In this document: piece after piece, positions 8,934 through 59,795 of the stretch
How positions within the stretch are numbered: position 1 is the stretch's first letter
Layout of the letters: each line of letters opens with the position of its first letter
From: an uncultured Acidobacteriota bacterium
Lineage (GTDB): Bacteria > Acidobacteriota > Vicinamibacteria > Vicinamibacterales > 2-12-FULL-66-21
Reading direction: 5' to 3'
DNA: 64,000 nt
Assembly: GCA_963749835.1 (NCBI GenBank)
Contig: CAVVOD010000003.1
Span: 976,721-1,040,720 of the forward strand
Made by a program: the position numbers and the translations under genes
The notes under the pieces: model-generated
Database searches by the model: none
What the model was told of the DNA's origin: nothing
What the model saw: the letters and a program-made list of their open reading frames with translations, nothing else

Positions 8934-8998
8934 CACGTCGCACGTCGCACGTCGCACGGGTAGCACGTAGCACGTAGCACGTAGCACGTAGCACGTAG
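8934..8998. repeat. Tandem heptanucleotide array (CACGTCG)x3 then (CACGTAG)x5
   Basis: Read directly: cacgtcg cacgtcg cacgtcg cacgggtag cacgtag x5. Lies between the TBDR stop (9004) and the amidase start. Confidence 0.95.
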
Positions 8999-23177: not shown

Positions 23178-24221
23178 TCACGGTGGCGGCCGCAAGGCTC
23201 TTGCAAGCGCGGCAAGTCCTTCCTCTCTCGACGTCTCCCCGCGGACCACAGGGAGCCAGTACCGACGCACGGCCGGCACCAGGTGGCCCCATCCATCGAG
23301 ACTCTCGAAGCCTTCCCTGATCCAGTAGGGTGTGTACTCCGGGCGCTGTTCGGAGGCCACCGTCGAACGGACGAACTCACCCGCCGTCGCAAAAATCAGG
23401 GCGTGCCACAGGTTGGCCGGCGGCTCGACGCCTGCAGCCCCGAAGACGCGAGCGATGGCGGGCCGGTTCGATCCGCCGATCGCGCCCGCGTGCTGAATTT
23501 CATGAAGGATGGTCTCGAGCGCATAGAGACCCTGGTTGCCGGCGTCCGTGGAATAGATGACGACCTGACCCTCGTACGTGGTGTAGCCGGCGGCAAAGTT
23601 GGCGTACGCCGACACATCGACCCGCCATCGATCCTTGGGCCACTCGGCGCCATAGACGCGAACGGTCGTCTCGACGTATTGCTTCTCGCAGGTTCGCAAC
23701 GGCGCCAGCACGCGTTCGATCCACCCGCGGTTCTCCGTGTCATGCTGCGGCCACCACCTGTCCCGATAGATGGGCATGGCAGTGCTGAGGGCTGCAGCAA
23801 CCCCCTGTATTCGATCCGGTGGACGCGCCCGCGGATCGCCTCCGAGCATCATCAACTGTTCTTTCAGCTGCAGCATATCGTCGTCGAAGAGACCCTTCGA
23901 CGCGACGATGTCACGGTAGAAGCCTGCCGACGTCAACCAGGCGGTGCGCTCCTCGTCAGACAGCCCGACGAGCGACGAGCGCTCCGGGACCGTCACCTTC
24001 CGGCGACCGCTCGAAAGTCCCGCGTCCTGACGAGCCCATTGGTAGAGAAAATGGTGCAGGTTCACCCAGGGATCGGAGTGCAGCTCGAAGCGGTCGCTTG
24101 TCGCGACGAGAGTGGTCGTCTCACGACGCGGCGGTGCCGATTCGACCTGGCCAGCGGTCACCGCGGGGGGTCCCGGGAGCAGCGCGAATGCCGCGATGGC
24201 GATGAACAGACGTGATCGCAT
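23178..24221 (-). CDS. Secreted hypothetical protein with HExxH motif (putative zinc metallohydrolase-like)
   Basis: ATG at 24221 gives MRSRLFIAIAAFALLPGPPAVTAG. HEIQH is present at ETILHEIQHAG. The 494-aa ORF-track extension overlaps the repeat array and the NHL gene end and is not credible. Confidence 0.65.
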   Translation of the reverse strand: MRSRLFIAIAAFALLPGPPAVTAGQVESAPPRRETTTLVATSDRFELHSDPWVNLHHFLYQWARQDAGLSSGRRKVTVPERSSLVGLSDEERTAWLTSAGFYRDIVASKGLFDDDMLQLKEQLMMLGGDPRARPPDRIQGVAAALSTAMPIYRDRWWPQHDTENRGWIERVLAPLRTCEKQYVETTVRVYGAEWPKDRWRVDVSAYANFAAGYTTYEGQVVIYSTDAGNQGLYALETILHEIQHAGAIGGSNRPAIARVFGAAGVEPPANLWHALIFATAGEFVRSTVASEQRPEYTPYWIREGFESLDGWGHLVPAVRRYWLPVVRGETSREEGLAALARALRPPP

Positions 24222-24237
24222 ATCGGGACACCGCCAA

Positions 24238-24378
24238 ACTCGGGATTCGGGGCTCGGGATTCGGGGCTCGGGATTCGGGGTTCGGGATTCGGGATTCGGC
24301 GTCCCCGGATCCCGGTTCAGGGCGGTCCGCAGTGCCGAGTCCCGAACCGCGAGCCCCGAGTCCCGAGTCCCGATCCCC
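24238..24378. repeat. Inverted pair of heptanucleotide arrays (CGGGATT/CGGGGCT)n ... (GAGTCCC/GAGCCCC)n, able to form a long imperfect hairpin
   Basis: Left arm is cgggatt cggggct cgggatt cggggct cgggatt cggggtt cgggatt cgggatt. Right arm is gagtccc gaaccgc gagcccc gagtccc gagtccc gatcccc. Lies between two same-strand genes. Confidence 0.9.
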
Positions 24379-24396
24379 ACTCTGACGCGGTTGTGT

Positions 24397-27300
24397 TCAT
24401 CGCACGGTGACCCGAACAACCTTCGCCGGGATGAACCCGCCCTTCGCGGTGCTCCACGCGAACACCGCCAGATTGTACGTCCCCGGCGGGAGCGAATCGA
24501 CAACGATCCCGTAGCCACTCTTTCTGAAGCGCTCACCGTAGATGCGGGCCACGTCCGGGCGTGCGCCCCCATAGGACGCAGCGCCGACAAAGATCGGATC
24601 GCCACCGCCCGCCGGGTAGGCCCACACGTGGACTGCGTCGATGCCGGTGCCGGTCTGACCATCCACGTCGAGCGCCCATCCGGCGATCACCAGCGACCGC
24701 GCGACATTCGCATTCGGTGCCGGCGTGTCGATCGCCACCTGCGGCCCGACGCGATTGCTTCCCTTCGGGTGGAGGACGATGCGGATTTCGCGGCGTGCGA
24801 CGGGGCGTCCGCCGGCCCATCGTACGAACACGAGATCGTAGCCATGCAGGAAACCCACACCAGGCTGCCACGTGAAGGTGCCCGTTGCCGCATCCAGATG
24901 CGATCCTATCGGCAGCGCGCCGACATGGTCCCCGGCACGCAGATAGCCTGTGTAGTGCGCGGTGGTCGAGGAAGGACCGCCCGGTCCGATGATGTCCCCG
25001 AGGAGCAGCTCGACACGGTCGGTCTCTTCCGCGTCGACAACGGCGCGGCCGCGCGCATCGGGTTCGATCGTGTGAAATGGCGCCTCGAGATCGAATCCGC
25101 GACGGCCGATAAAGCGACGCGGCTCCAGCGGTAGCGCGCCGAGCTCGGTCGGAGGAATGGACTCTGTCAGCGCAGGCGCCTCGAAGGTCAGGGACGCGGT
25201 CTGGCTGGCCTGGCGCTGCGCTCCGGCAACCACTCGACCCGGCAGCGGTCCGGCGCTGAGCCCCGAGCTGTTGGCGACCGTGAAGTAGCGGCTGCCAATC
25301 CCACTGGACAGACCATTGGCCGCCGTCACGCCCCACGCAATCGTGTGCACACCGTTGGCCAGCGTTGTCGTGTCGATCGGCGCCACGCCAAGCGCATTTG
25401 CCACGCCCGCGTAGGTCGCGACGGGAAACAGCGTGGTCAGGTCCGAGCGGCTGCTCCAGCCACCGGGAGACGCGACGTTCACGCCGTCGATGAAGACCGA
25501 CACTGTGCCGTGCGGGGGATACGCGAGCGTCGCACCCCGGGCCAGCACCCACCCGAAGTTATTGACCAGGCCCTGCACCGTTTCTCCCTGCAACGGCGTG
25601 TCGATCGCTCCGAACGGGGCTGTCGACACATCGTTGGTGCACGTGATGGTGCGAGTCCCCAGGACTACGCTGTGCCCGTCCGCATCGTCAGCGATCGCGT
25701 AGAGCTTGAACGTCCCGTTCCCCTGGTTGGGAAGGAAGTTCGTGAGCATCAGATACCCCCAGCCGGCGCGTGTGTTCCGGGGCAGCGTCGAAAACGACTG
25801 AGCGACGTCAGTTCGTGCTCCCTCGACGAACACGGCATTGCCGATGAAGATCTGCGCCGATCCTTCACCGGGAACCGGGTCCCGCAGTATCCGCAACGTC
25901 CGAACCTCGACGTCGTCGAGCGCCCAGCCGGTCACCGGGATCGAACCGGCGACACCGGTGGCGTTGGGCAACGGTGTGTCGAACGCGCCGGTCGGCACCG
26001 CTGACGTGCCATTGGCCATGGTGGTGAGCCTGACCGCGATGGGGCCGGTGCTGTTTCCAGCGCCGGCCAGCGTCAGCGTGATGGTGGCGTTGCGGACCGC
26101 GGCGGTCGCCACGGCAGCGGTGAACTGCACGGCGACCGACAGCGTCGCAGGTCCGGTGCCTGAAGTGGGCGTCACCGTCAGCCAGGGTTGATTCGACGCG
26201 GCCGTCCACGTGACGGGGCCGGCGCCGCCCTGTGTCAAGCGCACGGTTTGCGCGGCCGTCTTCTGGACGAACGCGGCCCCGTTGCTCGTGGCGGCAAACT
26301 GCAGCGAGGTCCGATCCAGGGTCAGTGTGGGCACGAGTCCCCCGCCGAACGTCACTTTCCGGATCCTCTGATTATTGGAGTCGCCGATGTACAGGCTTCC
26401 AGCGGCGTCCATCGTCATGGCCTGTGGGAATCGCAGCATCGCTGCCGCCGCGGATCCCCCGTCGCCTCCGAACCCCGCAATACCTGTCCCTACCACCGTC
26501 GTGATCACACCTGCCGTCAACTTCCGGACGCGTTGGTTCGATGCGTCCAGAATGAACAGGGATCCGTCGGTGGCTGCCGCCATGTCTCTCGGGTTGTTCA
26601 GCATCGCCGATGGCCCGGGCCTGTCACCGTTGAACCCGGCGGATCCGGTGCCCGCCACCGTCGTGATCACGCCCGCCGGTGTGACTTTGCGAACGCGGTG
26701 ATTGAGCGTGTCGCCGATATAGATGTTGCCTGCGGCGTCGACTTCGATACCCAGCGGCAGGTTCAGCATCGCAGAGGTCGCCTGTCCGCCGTCGCCGCCA
26801 TAGCCCTTGGTGCCTGTTCCCGCGATCGTGCTGATTGTTCCGGAAGGAGTGACCTTTCGGATGCGGTGGTGAAGGCTGTCACAGATGTACAGGTTGCCCG
26901 ACGCGTCAACGATGAGCCCACTGGGGCCGATGATTTGCGCGGCCGTCGCCGGCCCGCCGTCGCCGAGAGTGCTCCCGCCACCGGCCACAGTCGTGATGAT
27001 GCCAGTCGCGGCGGTGACCTTTCGAACCCGGTTGTTGAAGTCGTCTGAGATGTACAGATTCCCGGCTGCATCGACGGCGAGGTCAGCCACGCCGTTGAAT
27101 ATTGCGCTGGTTGCGGCCCCACCGTCGCCAAAGAACCCCATCTGCCCGGTGCCAGCGTACGTGCTGATGATCCCTCCAGGCGTCACCTGGCGGACGCGCA
27201 TGTTCTCGTAGTCGCCGATGAACAGGTTGCCCGCGGCGTCCACGGCGACGCCACCCGGGAAATTGAGCCTTGCCAGCGTGGCTTGTCCGCCGTTGCCGGT

Positions 27301-27465
27301 GAAGCCGATGGATCCGTTGCCGGCCACGGTCGTGATTATGGAAGAGGGAACCTGGGCGTCGGGATGGTCAGCGGTCCACACGAGCAGGATGATCGCGAGC
27401 GCGTTCATCCACGTGCACAACCTTCGGCGTGACCCGCGCGAGGCGGACAGTGGCTTCCCGGGCAT
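24397..27465 (-). CDS. Large secreted NHL-repeat protein with C-terminal Ig/BACON-like and beta-sandwich regions
   Basis: At least six repeats of the form GDGG.AT.A.LN.P.G..VDAAGNLYI.D..NHR(V/I)RKVT. Later region is LTLDRTSLQFAAT...PWLTVTPTSGTGPATLSVAV. Start chosen at MPGKPLSASRGSRRRLCTWMNALAIILLVWTA; 27408 is an alternative. Confidence 0.8.
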   Translation of the reverse strand: MPGKPLSASRGSRRRLCTWMNALAIILLVWTADHPDAQVPSSIITTVAGNGSIGFTGNGGQATLARLNFPGGVAVDAAGNLFIGDYENMRVRQVTPGGIISTYAGTGQMGFFGDGGAATSAIFNGVADLAVDAAGNLYISDDFNNRVRKVTAATGIITTVAGGGSTLGDGGPATAAQIIGPSGLIVDASGNLYICDSLHHRIRKVTPSGTISTIAGTGTKGYGGDGGQATSAMLNLPLGIEVDAAGNIYIGDTLNHRVRKVTPAGVITTVAGTGSAGFNGDRPGPSAMLNNPRDMAAATDGSLFILDASNQRVRKLTAGVITTVVGTGIAGFGGDGGSAAAAMLRFPQAMTMDAAGSLYIGDSNNQRIRKVTFGGGLVPTLTLDRTSLQFAATSNGAAFVQKTAAQTVRLTQGGAGPVTWTAASNQPWLTVTPTSGTGPATLSVAVQFTAAVATAAVRNATITLTLAGAGNSTGPIAVRLTTMANGTSAVPTGAFDTPLPNATGVAGSIPVTGWALDDVEVRTLRILRDPVPGEGSAQIFIGNAVFVEGARTDVAQSFSTLPRNTRAGWGYLMLTNFLPNQGNGTFKLYAIADDADGHSVVLGTRTITCTNDVSTAPFGAIDTPLQGETVQGLVNNFGWVLARGATLAYPPHGTVSVFIDGVNVASPGGWSSRSDLTTLFPVATYAGVANALGVAPIDTTTLANGVHTIAWGVTAANGLSSGIGSRYFTVANSSGLSAGPLPGRVVAGAQRQASQTASLTFEAPALTESIPPTELGALPLEPRRFIGRRGFDLEAPFHTIEPDARGRAVVDAEETDRVELLLGDIIGPGGPSSTTAHYTGYLRAGDHVGALPIGSHLDAATGTFTWQPGVGFLHGYDLVFVRWAGGRPVARREIRIVLHPKGSNRVGPQVAIDTPAPNANVARSLVIAGWALDVDGQTGTGIDAVHVWAYPAGGGDPIFVGAASYGGARPDVARIYGERFRKSGYGIVVDSLPPGTYNLAVFAWSTAKGGFIPAKVVRVTVR

Positions 27466-40191: not shown

Positions 40192-42972
40192 TCAGTCGTG
40201 ACGGAGCGCGATCATCGGATCGATTCGCGATGCCCTGCGCGCGGGCACGTAGCCGGCCAGAAGCGCGGCGCTCACGAGTATCGCCACCGCCAGCATCACT
40301 GCCTGCGGATCGTTCGGCTTCATGCCGAAGAGGAATGATTCGACAAGCTTCGACGTCCACAGTGCCGTCGGCACACTGATCGCAATCCCTACCGCCGCCA
40401 GGATAAAGACCTCGCGCAGCACCATCCAGACGACGGTCCCACGCTGCGCCCCGAGGGCCATGCGAATCCCGATCTCACCCGTCCGTCGGGCGACGGTGTA
40501 AGCCATCGTGCCGTACAGCCCTATACAGGCGATCACCAGTGCCAGGATGGCGAAGCCCTTGCAGAGCTTCGCGAACGTGATCTCCTGGTTGATGGTCTGA
40601 TCGATTTCGGCTGCCTGCGTCTTGATGTTGGTCAGCGGAACGCGCGAATCCGCCTGGCGCACGATGTCGCGGACGGTCTTGACGTACCCGAGAGGGTCGC
40701 CCGTCGTGCGCAGGGCATACGTCATCTGCCGTACCGGAGGGACTGCACTCTGGTTGTACGGGATATAAACAACAGGAGGCGTCTGCCCCTTCAGTCCGCC
40801 GTATCGCGCATTTGCGGAGACACCGACGATCTCCATGTCGTGCGGATTGGGCCCTCCGAAGGCGACATATTGCCCCACCGGATTCTCATCGCGAAAGTAC
40901 GTCCTGGCAAAGAGCTCGTCGATCACGACTACCGGCGTCGAGCCCGCACGATCGCGCTCGTCGATCTCACGTCCCCTCAGCATGGGAATCTGCATGGTCG
41001 TGAAGAATGCGGGTCCGGTGTTCAGCACACGCGTGCCTCGTGTGGGAGTGCCGGAGACGGTCATCGGCAGTTGCCTGCCGGCACGGACGAGGGACGCATG
41101 GGACAGCGTCGCGTTGCGTACGCCGGGGATCGCCGCAAGCCGGCGCCGCAAGGTGTCATAGAAGACGGCAATCTCCGGATCCTTGTGTCCGGCCTGGCGC
41201 GCGTTCACCTCGAACAGCAAGACATGTTCGCGGTTGTAGCCAAGCGACACGGATTGCAGGTTCGAGAGTGTCCGCACGAAAAGGCCAGCCGCCACCAGCA
41301 TCAGCAGTGAGATGGCGATTTGAGCCACCACCAGGGCATGGGTCATGTTCATGCGCAGGAATCCATGCCGCGCACGGATGCGTGATGCACCCGCGCGCGT
41401 CTCCTTGAGCGCGGGGATGACGTCAGGGCGTGTCGACTGGATTGCCGGGACCAGGCCGAAGAGCGCGCCGGTGATCGTCGAGAGCAGAAAGGTCGCGCCC
41501 AGCACATGCCAGTTCAGCTCGGCTCGTAACGTGAAGTGTTCCTGTCCATTCGCCAGCAAGAGGGTCAGGAATCGTATGCCCCAGAAGGCGAACAGCACAC
41601 CGAGCGCGCCGCCCAGGGACGCCAGCAGGATACTTTCCGTGAGAAGCTGCCGCACGATCCGGACGCGTCCGGCGCCGACGCTGAGCCGTACGGCCATCTC
41701 GCGCCTGCGCGCGGTGGCCCGCGCCAGCAGCAGGTTGGCGGTGTTCGCGCACGCAATCGCGAGGATAAGGCCCACCAGGGTCAACAGCACATACAGCGGC
41801 TTGGAGTACTCGCGACGGAGGCTGTCCAATCCCGCGGCCCCTTCCCTGAGCCACAACTGCGGAAGGTTCGCTCGCTCGCGCTCGGTGGTCGCGGTGCTGG
41901 CGACCCACTGGTGAAAGCCCTGAGCCAGAGCGGACTGGGCCTGATCGAGGCTGACGCCGGGACGCAGGCGTCCCATCATCTCGATCCAATAGTAGTTCTG
42001 GTCGAGATACTCCTTCGGCGTGGCGCTGGAGCTTGACGCTGCGCCCAGGACGAGATTGGCGTGCATCGGCAGATAGACGTCAGGCACTTCCGCGGGATCG
42101 ACGCCGAAGAACTCTGCCGGCGTCACCCCCACGACGGTAACCGGGACGTTGTTGATCAGAATGGACTGCCCTGCCGCATTCGCCGGTCCCCCGAAGCGCC
42201 GTTGACTGAGCCCCATGCTGATGACGGCGACGATCGGTGCGCCCGCCCGATCGTCATCGGCCGTAATCAGGCGGCCGGCGGCGGGAGGCACGGCCAGTCC
42301 ACGAAAGAAGTCGCCGGAGACATACTCGCCGCTGGCGGCCTCGGCCTGGCCGTTGATCATCACGTTCACGTTGTCCGCCGGGTAGTACGCGAAGACCGTC
42401 GAGAAGACCGGGTCCGACTGCTTCTGGAACAGCTCGAACGCCGGGTAGGGGAAGACTCCAGACGTGGTTCCCGCCGGGTCATCACCGTACGTCCGGCCGT
42501 TTATCGAGTGCATGACAAACGGGGAGCCTCCCGCGCGATCGGTCCAGTCGATGGGGCGGCTGCGCCAGTTCAGGAGGACGAGGGATGCCGGATCGGACAC
42601 AGGCAGCGATCGCAGCAGAATCGAGTCCATGAAGCTGTAGATCGCCGTGTTGGCCCCGATGCCGAGCATCAGCGAGAGCGTGACCAGCGCCGTGAATGCG
42701 CGGTTATGGCGCATCAGGCGCAGCGCGTAGCGAACGTCCTGCGCAAGCTGTTCGAGGAATGTCCAGGTCCACAAGGCGCGCGTGCGCTCCTGCAGCAGCG
42801 TGACGTTTCCGAGGTCGCGCCGGGCAGCCCACCTCGCCTCATCGATCGGCAGGCCGTCTGCCAGACGGTCTTCGGCTTCCTCGTCGAGGTGAAACTGCAG
42901 CTCGTCGCGGAGCTCATCGTCTTTGCGGCGCCGCTTCGCCCACCAGGTCAGCCTGCGAAAAAACGGGATCAT
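40192..42972 (-). CDS. ADOP-type MacB/FtsX-like permease (no adjacent PadR)
   Basis: ATG at 42972 gives MIPFFRRLTWWAKRRRKDDELRDELQFHLDEEAEDRLADGLPIDEARWAARRDLG. Duplicated FtsX bundles. C-terminus VPARRASRIDPMIALRHD. The GTG at 42990 lies inside a repeat. Confidence 0.9.
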   Translation of the reverse strand: MIPFFRRLTWWAKRRRKDDELRDELQFHLDEEAEDRLADGLPIDEARWAARRDLGNVTLLQERTRALWTWTFLEQLAQDVRYALRLMRHNRAFTALVTLSLMLGIGANTAIYSFMDSILLRSLPVSDPASLVLLNWRSRPIDWTDRAGGSPFVMHSINGRTYGDDPAGTTSGVFPYPAFELFQKQSDPVFSTVFAYYPADNVNVMINGQAEAASGEYVSGDFFRGLAVPPAAGRLITADDDRAGAPIVAVISMGLSQRRFGGPANAAGQSILINNVPVTVVGVTPAEFFGVDPAEVPDVYLPMHANLVLGAASSSSATPKEYLDQNYYWIEMMGRLRPGVSLDQAQSALAQGFHQWVASTATTERERANLPQLWLREGAAGLDSLRREYSKPLYVLLTLVGLILAIACANTANLLLARATARRREMAVRLSVGAGRVRIVRQLLTESILLASLGGALGVLFAFWGIRFLTLLLANGQEHFTLRAELNWHVLGATFLLSTITGALFGLVPAIQSTRPDVIPALKETRAGASRIRARHGFLRMNMTHALVVAQIAISLLMLVAAGLFVRTLSNLQSVSLGYNREHVLLFEVNARQAGHKDPEIAVFYDTLRRRLAAIPGVRNATLSHASLVRAGRQLPMTVSGTPTRGTRVLNTGPAFFTTMQIPMLRGREIDERDRAGSTPVVVIDELFARTYFRDENPVGQYVAFGGPNPHDMEIVGVSANARYGGLKGQTPPVVYIPYNQSAVPPVRQMTYALRTTGDPLGYVKTVRDIVRQADSRVPLTNIKTQAAEIDQTINQEITFAKLCKGFAILALVIACIGLYGTMAYTVARRTGEIGIRMALGAQRGTVVWMVLREVFILAAVGIAISVPTALWTSKLVESFLFGMKPNDPQAVMLAVAILVSAALLAGYVPARRASRIDPMIALRHD

Positions 42973-42975
42973 GTT

Positions 42976-43023
42976 CGAATCACTAATCACTAATCGCGAA
43001 TCACTAATCGCGAACCACTAATC
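42976..43023. repeat. Heptanucleotide array (CACTAAT / CGCGAAT) in the 5' leader of the ADOP gene
   Basis: cgaat cactaat cactaat cgcgaat cactaat cgcgaac cactaat cc. Starts 4 nt upstream of the ATG at 42972. Confidence 0.9.
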
Positions 43024-43083: not shown

Positions 43084-43157
43084 TCGGGATTCGGGGGAGG
43101 AACGGACGGTTCTGTCTCTCCGGCTCGAATCCCGAGTCCCGAAGCCCGAGCCCCCTC
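43084..43157. repeat. Inverted heptanucleotide element of the CGGGATT/GAGTCCC family
   Basis: Left arm cgggattcggggg. Right arm cgaatcccgagtcccgaagcccgagccccc. Same unit family as 24238..24378. Abuts the tannase-like stop. Confidence 0.8.
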
Positions 43158-43160
43158 GGT

Positions 43161-44717
43161 TCACCGCGTCTGGCAGGCGTAGCTGGCCGCGTCGGTGATA
43201 CTCCCCTTGCCGTCGTGCATTGCGCGCTGCGGGTACGGGCACAGCGGACGCGCATTCAGAATGCGGCCGTCCGCGCGTTTCTGCGCGATCAGGCGTTCCG
43301 GCGCCCGGCCCTGCTCGACCCATTCAGAAATAGCCGTGAACCAGTCCACGAAGTCGGGACCGGCGCCCCCGCCGCAGTGCAGCACGCCAGGCATCATGAA
43401 GAGCCGCGCGTAGTCGCGGAGTCCCGGATCCCGGACCTGCATCTGATCGTAGTAGGCGATCGTCGAGAGCGGGTTCAGCGCGGGATCCGCCCAGCCGTGC
43501 GACAGGATCAGCTTGCCTCGTCTCGCCTTGAACTTACTCAGATCGGGATCAACGGCGTTCAGGTATCTGGCGACGTCGGCCGTGTCCTTGCGCCAGTTGG
43601 CGAGGTCGTACGTGGCGTAATCCCAATCCTCGCGTCCCAGCGCCAGGTACTTGAAGAAGTGCGTGCCAAAGGCATGTTCCAGGCTGGGTGGCCCCCCGGC
43701 CGTCTCGGCGAACGCATTCATGCCCGTCACCCACGGTTGCCAGCCGCCGTCTTGCCCCTCCCCTCCGAAGGGCTGACCGGGATAGATCGTCGTGCCCTGG
43801 CTGAGGGTGGGGGAATAGACCCGTGCGATCGCCGCCCGTTGAGTTTTCGTCACGCACCCGGCGCTTGCCTTCTCTCCCGCGCACGCCGGCAGGTCGGCGA
43901 TGTTGAAGCGGCATTCGCGCGGATCGTCGAGCACGCTGTCCTTCACCTCGTCGCGAGCGTCGCAGGCCTCGAGCACCTTCGATTCGAGCAGCCGCAGGTT
44001 GTCCGAAGAGATCGCCGCCGCGTGCAGCGCCTTCGGATCCGGATACACAGCCTGCGTGTTCTTCACGAACGACGCGGCGATGTTCGTGAAGTCCAGCGCG
44101 GGCGCGCACGAGACGATACCGTCGAAGTCGGCCGGAAATCGCTGGGCCTCCATCAGCGCCTGGCGACCGCCATTCGAGCAACCGTAGAAATACGAGTACT
44201 TCGCGTCGACGCCGTAGTAGGCCTTGACGACGGCCTTCGCGATCTCCGATGTCCGATGGATCGCGAGATACCCATAGTTGATTTGCCGCTCACGGTTGCC
44301 CAGGGCCCAGCGTGCGTCCATTCCGTCCGCCTCGTGCCCGGTGTCGGTGCCGACGGTGGCGTAACCGAAGTTGACGCTGGAGATCGCCATGTTTTCGACA
44401 CTGCCGACAAAGCCGCCGCCACCGCCGGCAAAGAGCCGCTCATTCCAGCGGTCCGGCAGAAGCTCCGTGAATCGAATCTCCCTGTCGATGACGCCCGACA
44501 CCCGGCAGTGCGGCGCCCTGACGTTCCCGGTTTCGCTGGCCGCGACGGCAACCGCCTCGGTGATTCTCGCGCTGGTCAGCCGCAGGGTCGTGAGCGATGC
44601 ACAGTCCACGTGCGCCGACGGGGCGCTGCCGGCCTGCGCGAATGAAACGGGATCGGAGCTCGAGAGACCGGCGACGCTGAAGCACAACGCCGCAACCAGG
44701 CGCGGATGAAGCAACAT
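43161..44717 (-). CDS. Secreted tannase/feruloyl-esterase family hydrolase
   Basis: ATG at 44717 (MLLHPRLVAALCFSVAGLSSS). Family motifs VGTDTGH, YFYGCSNGGRQALMEAQRFPADFDGIVSCAPA, HGWADP and PGVLHCGGG. Confidence 0.85.
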   Translation of the reverse strand: MLLHPRLVAALCFSVAGLSSSDPVSFAQAGSAPSAHVDCASLTTLRLTSARITEAVAVAASETGNVRAPHCRVSGVIDREIRFTELLPDRWNERLFAGGGGGFVGSVENMAISSVNFGYATVGTDTGHEADGMDARWALGNRERQINYGYLAIHRTSEIAKAVVKAYYGVDAKYSYFYGCSNGGRQALMEAQRFPADFDGIVSCAPALDFTNIAASFVKNTQAVYPDPKALHAAAISSDNLRLLESKVLEACDARDEVKDSVLDDPRECRFNIADLPACAGEKASAGCVTKTQRAAIARVYSPTLSQGTTIYPGQPFGGEGQDGGWQPWVTGMNAFAETAGGPPSLEHAFGTHFFKYLALGREDWDYATYDLANWRKDTADVARYLNAVDPDLSKFKARRGKLILSHGWADPALNPLSTIAYYDQMQVRDPGLRDYARLFMMPGVLHCGGGAGPDFVDWFTAISEWVEQGRAPERLIAQKRADGRILNARPLCPYPQRAMHDGKGSITDAASYACQTR

Positions 44718-44782
44718 CACTGACTCCTCCACTCCGAGGCACGCGTGAGGGAACCGCGATCAGGCGGGTCGGAAGACAGGTT

Positions 44783-45040: not shown

Positions 45041-45112
45041 TAGCTCTCAGCTCTCAGCTTTCAGCTCCGCCCGGATGTCGAACTGATAGCTGACAGCTGA
45101 CACCTGATAGCT
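45041..45112. repeat. Inverted heptanucleotide arrays of the GCTGAxA family (CTCTCAG)n ... (ATAGCTG/ACAGCTG)n
   Basis: tagctctcag ctctcag ctttcag ctccgcc cggatgt cgaactg atagctg acagctg acacctg atagctg. The arms are imperfectly complementary. Confidence 0.85.
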
Positions 45113-45213
45113 GGCGGGTGAGGCAGGCCGCCACGAGCTCATGCTTGGAGGCGTAATGGGCGTAGAGCGAGCCTTGGCGATGCCGGCCGCGTCGATGACC
45201 CCCTGGATACGTT

Positions 45214-45245
45214 CTACGTGCTACGTGCTACGTGCTACGTGCTAC
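45214..45245. repeat. Heptanucleotide array (CTACGTG)x4
   Basis: ctacgtg x4 then ctac. The stop codon and last codons of the antiporter reading frame (..GST*) lie inside it. Confidence 0.9.
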
Positions 45246-59699: not shown

Positions 59700-59795
59700 T
59701 TACGTGCTACGTGTTACGTGCTACGTGTCTACGTGCTACGTGTTACGTGCTACGTGTTACGTGCTACGTGTTACGTGCTACGTGCTACGTGCTAC
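59700..59795. repeat. Longest heptanucleotide array of the window: ~13 units alternating TACGTGC / TACGTGT
   Basis: ttacgtgc tacgtgt tacgtgc tacgtgtc tacgtgc tacgtgt ... tacgtgc tacgtgc tac. Fills the gap between convergent btuB and ADOP stops except 7 nt after the btuB stop, and directly abuts the ADOP stop. Confidence 0.95.

Follow-up and report, generated by a model that had tools for sequence, protein, structure and literature searches.

REP and BIME elements of enterobacteria and Pseudomonas are conserved imperfect palindromes of 20–40 nt, which occur in many near-identical copies and are linked to RAYT transposases. As hairpins in mRNA, they can protect upstream RNA from exonucleases.

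Tandem repeats with a unit of seven nucleotides have been described in several bacterial lineages. In Xanthomonas campestris and X. axonopodis the unit is GGGAATC and in Nostoc PCC 7120 it is GGGGA(C/T)T (Rehm et al. 2015, PMC4692102). These repeats are present in hundreds of copies, about 90% of them intergenic; they vary in length and sequence between close relatives, and the study identified no function for them. The paper gives a strand rule, by which the repeats are antisense within 50 bp upstream of an ORF and sense within 50 bp past a stop codon. Each Xanthomonas genome holds 70–75 convergent inverted pairs, which can form stem-loops. The same authors reported that four units, the fewest that allow a G-quadruplex (G4), are preferred, found that the repeat forms a G4 in vitro, and gave polymerase slippage favouring 7-nt steps as a suggested cause of heptamer repeats. 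In Geobacter metallireducens, GGGACCG occurs four times in tandem at 49 sites, and there are paired 7–9-nt sites on opposite strands, with variable spacing and three to five tandem units; the authors took these sites to bind regulators or to act as RNA elements (Aklujkar et al. 2009, PMC2700814). Tandem TAACTGA heptamers are abundant in the intergenic regions of one lineage, the Beggiatoaceae (PMC4679880). Prokaryotes also have long simple-sequence repeats (Mrazek et al. 2007, cited after Rehm et al. 2015, PMC4692102).

The locus described here belongs to a soil acidobacterial genome (8.0 Mb in four contigs, 65.6% GC), whose proteins have their nearest named relatives in metagenome-assembled genomes (MAGs) of the Vicinamibacterales/Acidobacteriota. 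In the window, by which we mean the whole analysed stretch of 64,000 nucleotides, two facing heptamer arrays fill a 175-nt intergenic spacer (24222–24396) between co-directional minus-strand genes. Gene calls are our own and are based on codon usage; they comprise 6023 genes, the start codons of which are approximate. Listed in the direction of transcription, the features of the locus are:

24397..27408, minus strand: upstream gene, encoding a secreted NHL-repeat/BACON-domain protein of 1003 aa (own gene call, translation, Pfam)
24379..24396, minus strand: unique spacer of 18 nt from the stop codon to the first arm (sequence; unique in the genome by blastn-short)
24335..24378, minus strand: sense-G-rich arm of about six units (TRF, 6.3 copies; inverted-repeat arm)
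24300..24334, no strand assigned: loop of 35 nt, unique sequence, non-REP (blastn-short, self match only)
24238..24299, plus strand: plus-strand-G-rich arm of 8.6 units, C-rich in the sense RNA (TRF, period 7 and 14)
24222..24237, minus strand: leader of 16 nt from the repeat to the ATG of the HExxH gene (sequence; promoter/terminator scan)
23178..24221, minus strand: downstream gene, encoding a 347-aa secreted protein with a HEIQH (HExxH) motif and a signal peptide (translation)

The NHL/BACON gene ends with a TGA codon at 24397–24399, and the Pfam matches of its product are NHL (1.5e-30), TEN_NHL and BACON. A Pfam scan of the 347-aa HExxH protein gave no family; its homologues, with identities of up to 57%, begin at an equivalent point. 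The sense RNA thus runs from the stop codon through 18 nt, a GGGACTC-type arm, the 35-nt loop, a GAATCCC-type arm and 16 nt to the ATG, and no clear Shine-Dalgarno sequence is present in the 16-nt leader (24222–24237). An earlier note, made from the sequence alone, had described eight units followed after about 35 nt by about six units of the reverse complement, placed between the NHL stop and the HExxH start on the same strand. This layout is confirmed: TRF counts 8.6 and 6.3 copies, and the gap is 35 nt. One detail is put right, namely that both flanking genes are encoded by the minus strand.

On the minus strand, the arm at 24335–24378 is composed of GGGGAT, CGGGACT, CGGGACT, CGGGGCT, CGCGGTT and CGGGACT (TRF: period 7, 6.3 copies, consensus CCGAGCC/CCGAGTC). 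The facing arm, read on the plus strand from 24238 to 24299, has the pair CGGGATT CGGGGCT three times, then CGGGATT, CGGGGTT, CGGGATT and CGGGATT. TRF assigns 24240–24299 a period of 7 (8.6 copies, consensus TCGGGAT), although the stretch is described best by a 14-mer, CTCGGGATTCGGGG, repeated 3.9 times with 97% matches. The dominant units differ between the two arms (ATT/GCT in one, mostly ACT in the other), and the inverted-repeat search returned arms of 34–53 nt with a complementarity of 75–88%. Each array has its G-rich strand reading 5' to 3' away from the adjacent gene and, on this strand, at least four G3 tracts with 4-nt loops.

None of the six reading frames of the G-rich units has a stop codon. 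As a result, an open frame of 494 codons (23178–24662, minus strand) enters the hairpin from upstream and crosses both arms into the HExxH gene. Facing arrays inflate intergenic spacers and can be read as open frames, and automatic annotation could wrongly extend the N-terminus of the HExxH gene through the repeats.

The earlier note had predicted a long hairpin at this position, and its folding energy is indeed well beyond that of shuffled sequences. We folded 24225–24395 (171 nt) and compared it with 200 shuffles, obtaining −115.6 kcal/mol for the plus-strand RNA (z −7.5), −103.5 kcal/mol for the minus-strand, or sense, RNA (z −6.6) and −54.9 kcal/mol for the minus-strand DNA (z −5.2); in each of the three folds, 0 of the 200 shuffles reached the native energy. 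The hairpin drew only sub-threshold matches in Rfam, to precursors of eukaryotic miRNAs; long hairpins in general give such a response.

A shorter copy of the same kind had been proposed at 43084–43157, next to the stop codon of a tannase gene (43161–44732, minus strand; Pfam Tannase, 9e-106). Two features are found there:

43126..43157, minus strand: four-unit G-rich array, GGGGGCTCGGGCTTCGGGACTCGGGATTCG in the sense strand, 5 nt past the tannase stop (sequence, TRF)
43084..43096, plus strand: short complementary piece of 13 nt, cgggattcggggg (judged by folding)

The array beside the tannase stop is present as described, but the fold of 43084–43157 is no better than chance in comparison with shuffles (z −0.38); this second site is an array and not a significant hairpin. 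The same gap is also occupied by a 6.6-unit AATCACT array (42978–43023; GATTAGT on the sense strand), which ends about 10 nt before the start of a gene for a MacB/FtsX-type ABC permease (40192–42990, minus strand).

Were the flagged arrays a one-off spacer, no further copies would be found in the genome. Our search shows the opposite, with about 990 period-7 arrays and abundant copies of the G-rich kind. A strict scanner found 613 arrays of period 7, compared to 17–40 for periods 5, 6, 8 and 9, and the merged TRF output holds 986 period-7 arrays with a total of 48 kb. Nearly all of these lie outside gene calls (916 of 986, 93%), and at least one is present in 663 of the 4149 intergenic gaps. 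About half of the arrays are from GGG-containing families (e.g. GGGATTC, GGGACTC, GGGGATC), and the units of the flagged locus, GGGATTC, GGGGCTC, GGGACTC and GGGGTTC, likewise fit a tandem 7-nt unit with a G3–4 tract. The remaining arrays have TCAGCTN- and CGTGCTA-type units, the CTACGTG family included; in the window, such non-G families are seen at 8934–8998, 45042–45245 and 59700–59795. Strict G-rich runs of at least two units number 696 genome-wide, against 14 for a reversed control pattern. Their lengths decay monotonically (351, 169, 92, 32, 27 and 9 runs of two, three, four, five, six and seven units, and so on), with no peak at four units. Small errors in the exact number of units are possible, since artefacts can be seen in this long-read MAG; one is a homopolymer stretch of about 2.9 kb at C1:2869686–2872618 (2480 A, 277 C, 176 A). 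Independently assembled genomes nevertheless show the arrays again, in the same arrangement.

Compared with the described systems, the arrays are most readily set beside the repeats of Xanthomonas and Nostoc, with which they have in common the 7-nt unit with a G3–4 tract, the intergenic bias, the strand rule, the convergent pairs and the variation between close relatives. They differ from these in their host, which is from a different phylum (Acidobacteriota, Vicinamibacterales-like), in the mixture of unit variants within arrays (ATT, ACT, GCT, GTT and GAT), in having no four-unit preference, and in sharing the genome with non-G heptamer families that are just as abundant and subject to the same rules. 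The sites of G. metallireducens are also tandem heptamers paired on opposite strands, but have a fixed unit number, whereas the number here is open-ended with a geometric decay. The heptamers of cyanobacterial STRR, TAACTGA repeats and prokaryotic simple-sequence repeats resemble the arrays in being intergenic, tandem and abundant in particular lineages; they have other unit sequences and mostly form direct arrays rather than facing pairs. REP and BIME elements are likewise intergenic and often located past stop codons or within operons. In contrast to them, our loci have no conserved sequence beyond the 7-nt unit, their arms being microsatellites. No paper that connects heptamer repeats to Acidobacteria or Vicinamibacter turned up in a full-text literature search, and the flagged locus adds the Acidobacteriota to the lineages with polar, convergent G-rich heptamer repeats.

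The polarity of the arrays is evident from our gene calls. After stop codons, the sense strand is G-rich in 174 arrays and C-rich in 68, and before starts it is C-rich in 144 and G-rich in 40. Of 289 arrays, 105 begin 0–9 nt past a stop codon, which is where the distances peak. The flagged locus obeys the strand rule on both sides. For the order of the arms, we counted G-arrays followed by a C-array within 120 nt on the same strand, a count that requires no gene calls. Genome-wide, 92 pairs at 67 loci have the G-arm first and none has the C-arm first, although the polarity of single arrays predicts about 13 reversed pairs. Four related genomes contribute about 23 further G-first loci, and the reverse order was found 0 times in ten genomes. 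The non-G families (TCAGCTN and CGTGCTA types) show the same behaviour, with an arm order of 47:1 and a strong strand polarity before starts (e.g. 32:2 and 36:5). As the earlier note had surmised, the G-rich arrays form a second heptamer family; it obeys the rules that hold for the CTACGTG family. Since the 7-nt period and the fixed arm order are common to both, a common origin of the two is plausible.

The two arms of a pair are strongly coupled in their occurrence. G- and C-arrays are found in one gap 71 times, where 11.8 are expected (OR 12, p 6e-40), and the excess is 5–8-fold in every class of residual gap length; unrelated repeat classes co-occur at an OR of 2.5 only. Further, partner arms belong to one unit sub-family. 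Partner units that are one base apart are enriched (42 vs 27.4 in shuffles), while identical dominant units are not (17 vs 17.4 expected), and the arm lengths are uncorrelated (rho −0.03). In hairpins that pair ATT with ACT units, the mismatch becomes a G·U pair on the sense strand in six cases and on the antisense strand in five, the flagged locus being one with antisense. The unmirrored units, the uncorrelated lengths and the even split of G·U strands speak against a hairpin that is kept up for the sake of pairing. We had also considered a purging of perfect palindromes, as ACT/ACT pairs make up 0 of 26 in the TRF set (Fisher p 0.0024), but rejected it: in a larger set, obtained with regular expressions, identical partners occur at expectation. 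As to their units, partner arms can be called related but not mirrored. A gradient of unit decay along the arrays, which could have been a mark of directional growth, gave no clear asymmetry, by a measure that is biased by tie-breaking.

We consider it reasonably probable that the feature is a pair of facing microsatellites that turns over by slippage, and neither a discrete element nor a selected terminator. It is a microsatellite, rather than a REP or MITE, because only the 7-nt unit recurs between loci. Both arms may arise together, or one may seed the other, the likely route being a local inverted duplication or a template switch beside the end of a gene; each arm would then grow and turn over separately as replication slips, with 7 or 14 nt per step. 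Joint birth followed by separate turnover would explain why the arms co-occur and have a sub-family in common, yet differ in their lengths and units. Slippage fits both the monotonic decay of run lengths and the 14-nt super-period of the left arm, which points to slippage by two units at a time. For the flagged locus itself, slippage is what we infer. It leaves unexplained the strict arm order and the 6-fold excess of paired arms.

If the spacer is transcribed, the facing microsatellites may have consequences for the RNA. An RNA that crosses them could adopt either a long imperfect hairpin (about −100 kcal/mol) or, with its 5' arm, a G-quadruplex, and in this form would be a passive obstacle to 3' exonucleases and read-through. 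By analogy with REP/BIME hairpins, the hairpin would be expected to slow 3' exonucleases in the spacer RNA. A consensus scan of the locus found neither a sigma-70-like promoter nor an intrinsic terminator, and only 69 nt of the spacer is non-repeat. As this leaves little room for a separate promoter, the NHL/BACON and HExxH genes are probably co-transcribed through the hairpin, or else a promoter lies within the repeats.

A different reading is that the hairpin is a selected RNA structure between the two genes, such as a factor-independent terminator, an insulator, an RNase III site or a barrier to 3' exonucleases, comparable to REP/BIME in E. coli. The sense-strand fold (−103.5 kcal/mol, z −6.6) and the start of the first arm 18 nt past the stop codon agree with this, as does the somewhat higher frequency, relative to controls, with which Xanthomonas transcripts began or ended at G4-capable repeats (Rehm et al. 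2015, PMC4692102). Hairpins are also found in 2.36% of convergent gaps and in about 1.1% of others (p 0.02), an excess that could reflect some use at transcript ends. Yet divergent gaps, which contain no 3' end of a gene, have hairpins as often as tandem gaps (1.08% and 1.12%, respectively), and only about 1.5% of gaps hold such a hairpin, which then occupies a median of 64% of the gap. The hairpins lack a U-tract, the next 10 nt containing a mean of 2.3 T, with at least five T in 9% of cases; at the flagged locus, the consensus scan did not find the combination of GC-rich stem, short loop and U-tract that defines an intrinsic (Rho-independent) terminator. Nor do the G·U pairs favour the sense strand (six against five, antisense here), the lengths of the arms match each other (rho −0.03) or the relatives have a hairpin at the matching position. 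The evidence against a part in transcript ends or processing, which the earlier note had considered, is indirect; judging by these sequence features, we do not think that the hairpin would be a selected terminator or processing site, and regard a selected RNA structure as unlikely.

It is also conceivable that facing heptamer arrays are made by a directional process that is independent of the unit sequence and goes beyond slippage plus chance. Such a generator could work at gene boundaries, through a synthesis that is primed by a hairpin or switches templates and that advances by 7 nt per step. The argument for it is that all families have the 7-nt period, the strict arm order (92:0 and 47:1) and the 6-fold pairing excess. 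We hold this to be a rather improbable explanation. If it were true, it would amount to an unrecognised mutational mechanism that spans Acidobacteriota, Xanthomonas and cyanobacteria, and the patchy spread of the arrays within the genus would make the enzyme findable by phylogenetic profiling.

The G-rich arrays could further be seen as regulatory elements, in which four or more G3 tracts form a G-quadruplex, in DNA or RNA, that tunes the neighbouring gene; the strand rule would then result from selection against G4 in 5' leaders. Both arms have the at least four G3 tracts with 4-nt loops on their G-rich strands that this requires, and their strand rule matches that of the repeats which form G4 in vitro (Rehm et al. 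2015, PMC4692102). Run lengths, however, decay monotonically with no preference for four units, and the TCAGCTN- and CGTGCTA-type families follow the arm order (47:1) and the polarity. Because these families, which are unable to form G4, obey both, the G tracts cannot be the cause of the pattern. The missing four-unit preference and the rule-following non-G families thus argue that the G-quadruplex is not what shapes the pattern here, and we consider a regulatory G4 decidedly doubtful. They also weaken the G-quadruplex explanation that was offered for Xanthomonas and Nostoc, and suggest instead that the cause has to do with the 7-nt period and with gene boundaries.

That the hairpin is a mobile or REP/MITE-type element copied whole to many places is barely credible and effectively refuted, since, despite its inverted-repeat architecture and the presence of two Y1 transposase (PF01797) homologues in the genome (which may be of RAYT or IS200 type), the loop and both flanks are without a second copy in 8 Mb (blastn-short), array length and unit order differ at each locus, and no terminal repeats or target duplications were seen. 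The REP-like label of the earlier note is therefore given up: there is no conserved element, neither the loop nor the flanks occur elsewhere in the genome, and the arms are microsatellites that vary in length and in the make-up of their units. Annotation should avoid the terms REP, MITE, terminator and small-RNA gene for hairpins of facing arrays.

The distribution of the arrays among relatives is uneven. The HExxH gene has no close orthologue among 60 relatives, and an exact copy elsewhere was not found; its homologues from metagenomes (54–57% identity) have different upstream neighbours and no arrays. Relatives of the NHL/BACON gene are at the level of paralogs only, with identities of up to 55%, and the orthologue of the tannase gene in a related genome (G019, 76% identity) has no array past its stop. 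In the comparison of orthologous intergenic regions, which the earlier note had proposed as a check, no arrays are present at the matching position beside the 57% and 76% homologues. Four-unit GGGRNTC arrays have 379 matches in our genome and 206, 166, 94 and 71 in four genomes of the same genus, and there are none in several contiguous same-genus assemblies; a reversed control of the pattern had almost no matches across genomes. In 457 kb sampled from the loci of related genomes, true arrays were found at only one locus. From this patchy spread, we take the arrays to be recent expansions of particular lineages. Genera in which array-rich species stand beside array-free ones are good ground for seeking the cause of the period and of the arm order.

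Loss of mismatch repair was tried as a cause of the expansions and rejected, as breakage of mutS does not track array richness among relatives. The only mutS1 homologue of the genome (C1:1844457–1847085) is 82% identical in nucleotide sequence to an intact orthologue from the same genus, compared to which it is broken by about 25 indels of one base each, and in the 20 kb around it the coding density is 0.50, compared to a genome median of 0.84. On account of this low coding density and of the missing correlation with arrays, we read the breakage as a probable problem of assembly quality; the broken mutS1 probably marks a low-quality stretch of the assembly.

The 5' arms of 114 inverted pairs contain 22 recurrent unit types, all of which fit the register N-N-Y-C-R-G-S, with an invariant G at position 6. 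We do not put NNYCRGS forward as a shared unit core: it amounts to 6.1 bits, against 4.6 bits with strands randomised, but the control is not independent, because randomising the strands splits related variants, and there are only about three independent families. The common register across unit families may be a coincidence.

A related genome of the same genus, the MAG MFD00392.bin.1.305 (G010), has many arrays and no strict hairpin with a loop of 10–40 nt. At an unrelated locus of this genome (L091:104–145), we found a 42-mer identical to 24242–24283 of the window, which consists of GGGATTCGGGGCTC twice and GGGATTCGGGGTTC. As the repertoire of units is small, a match of this kind is expected by chance.
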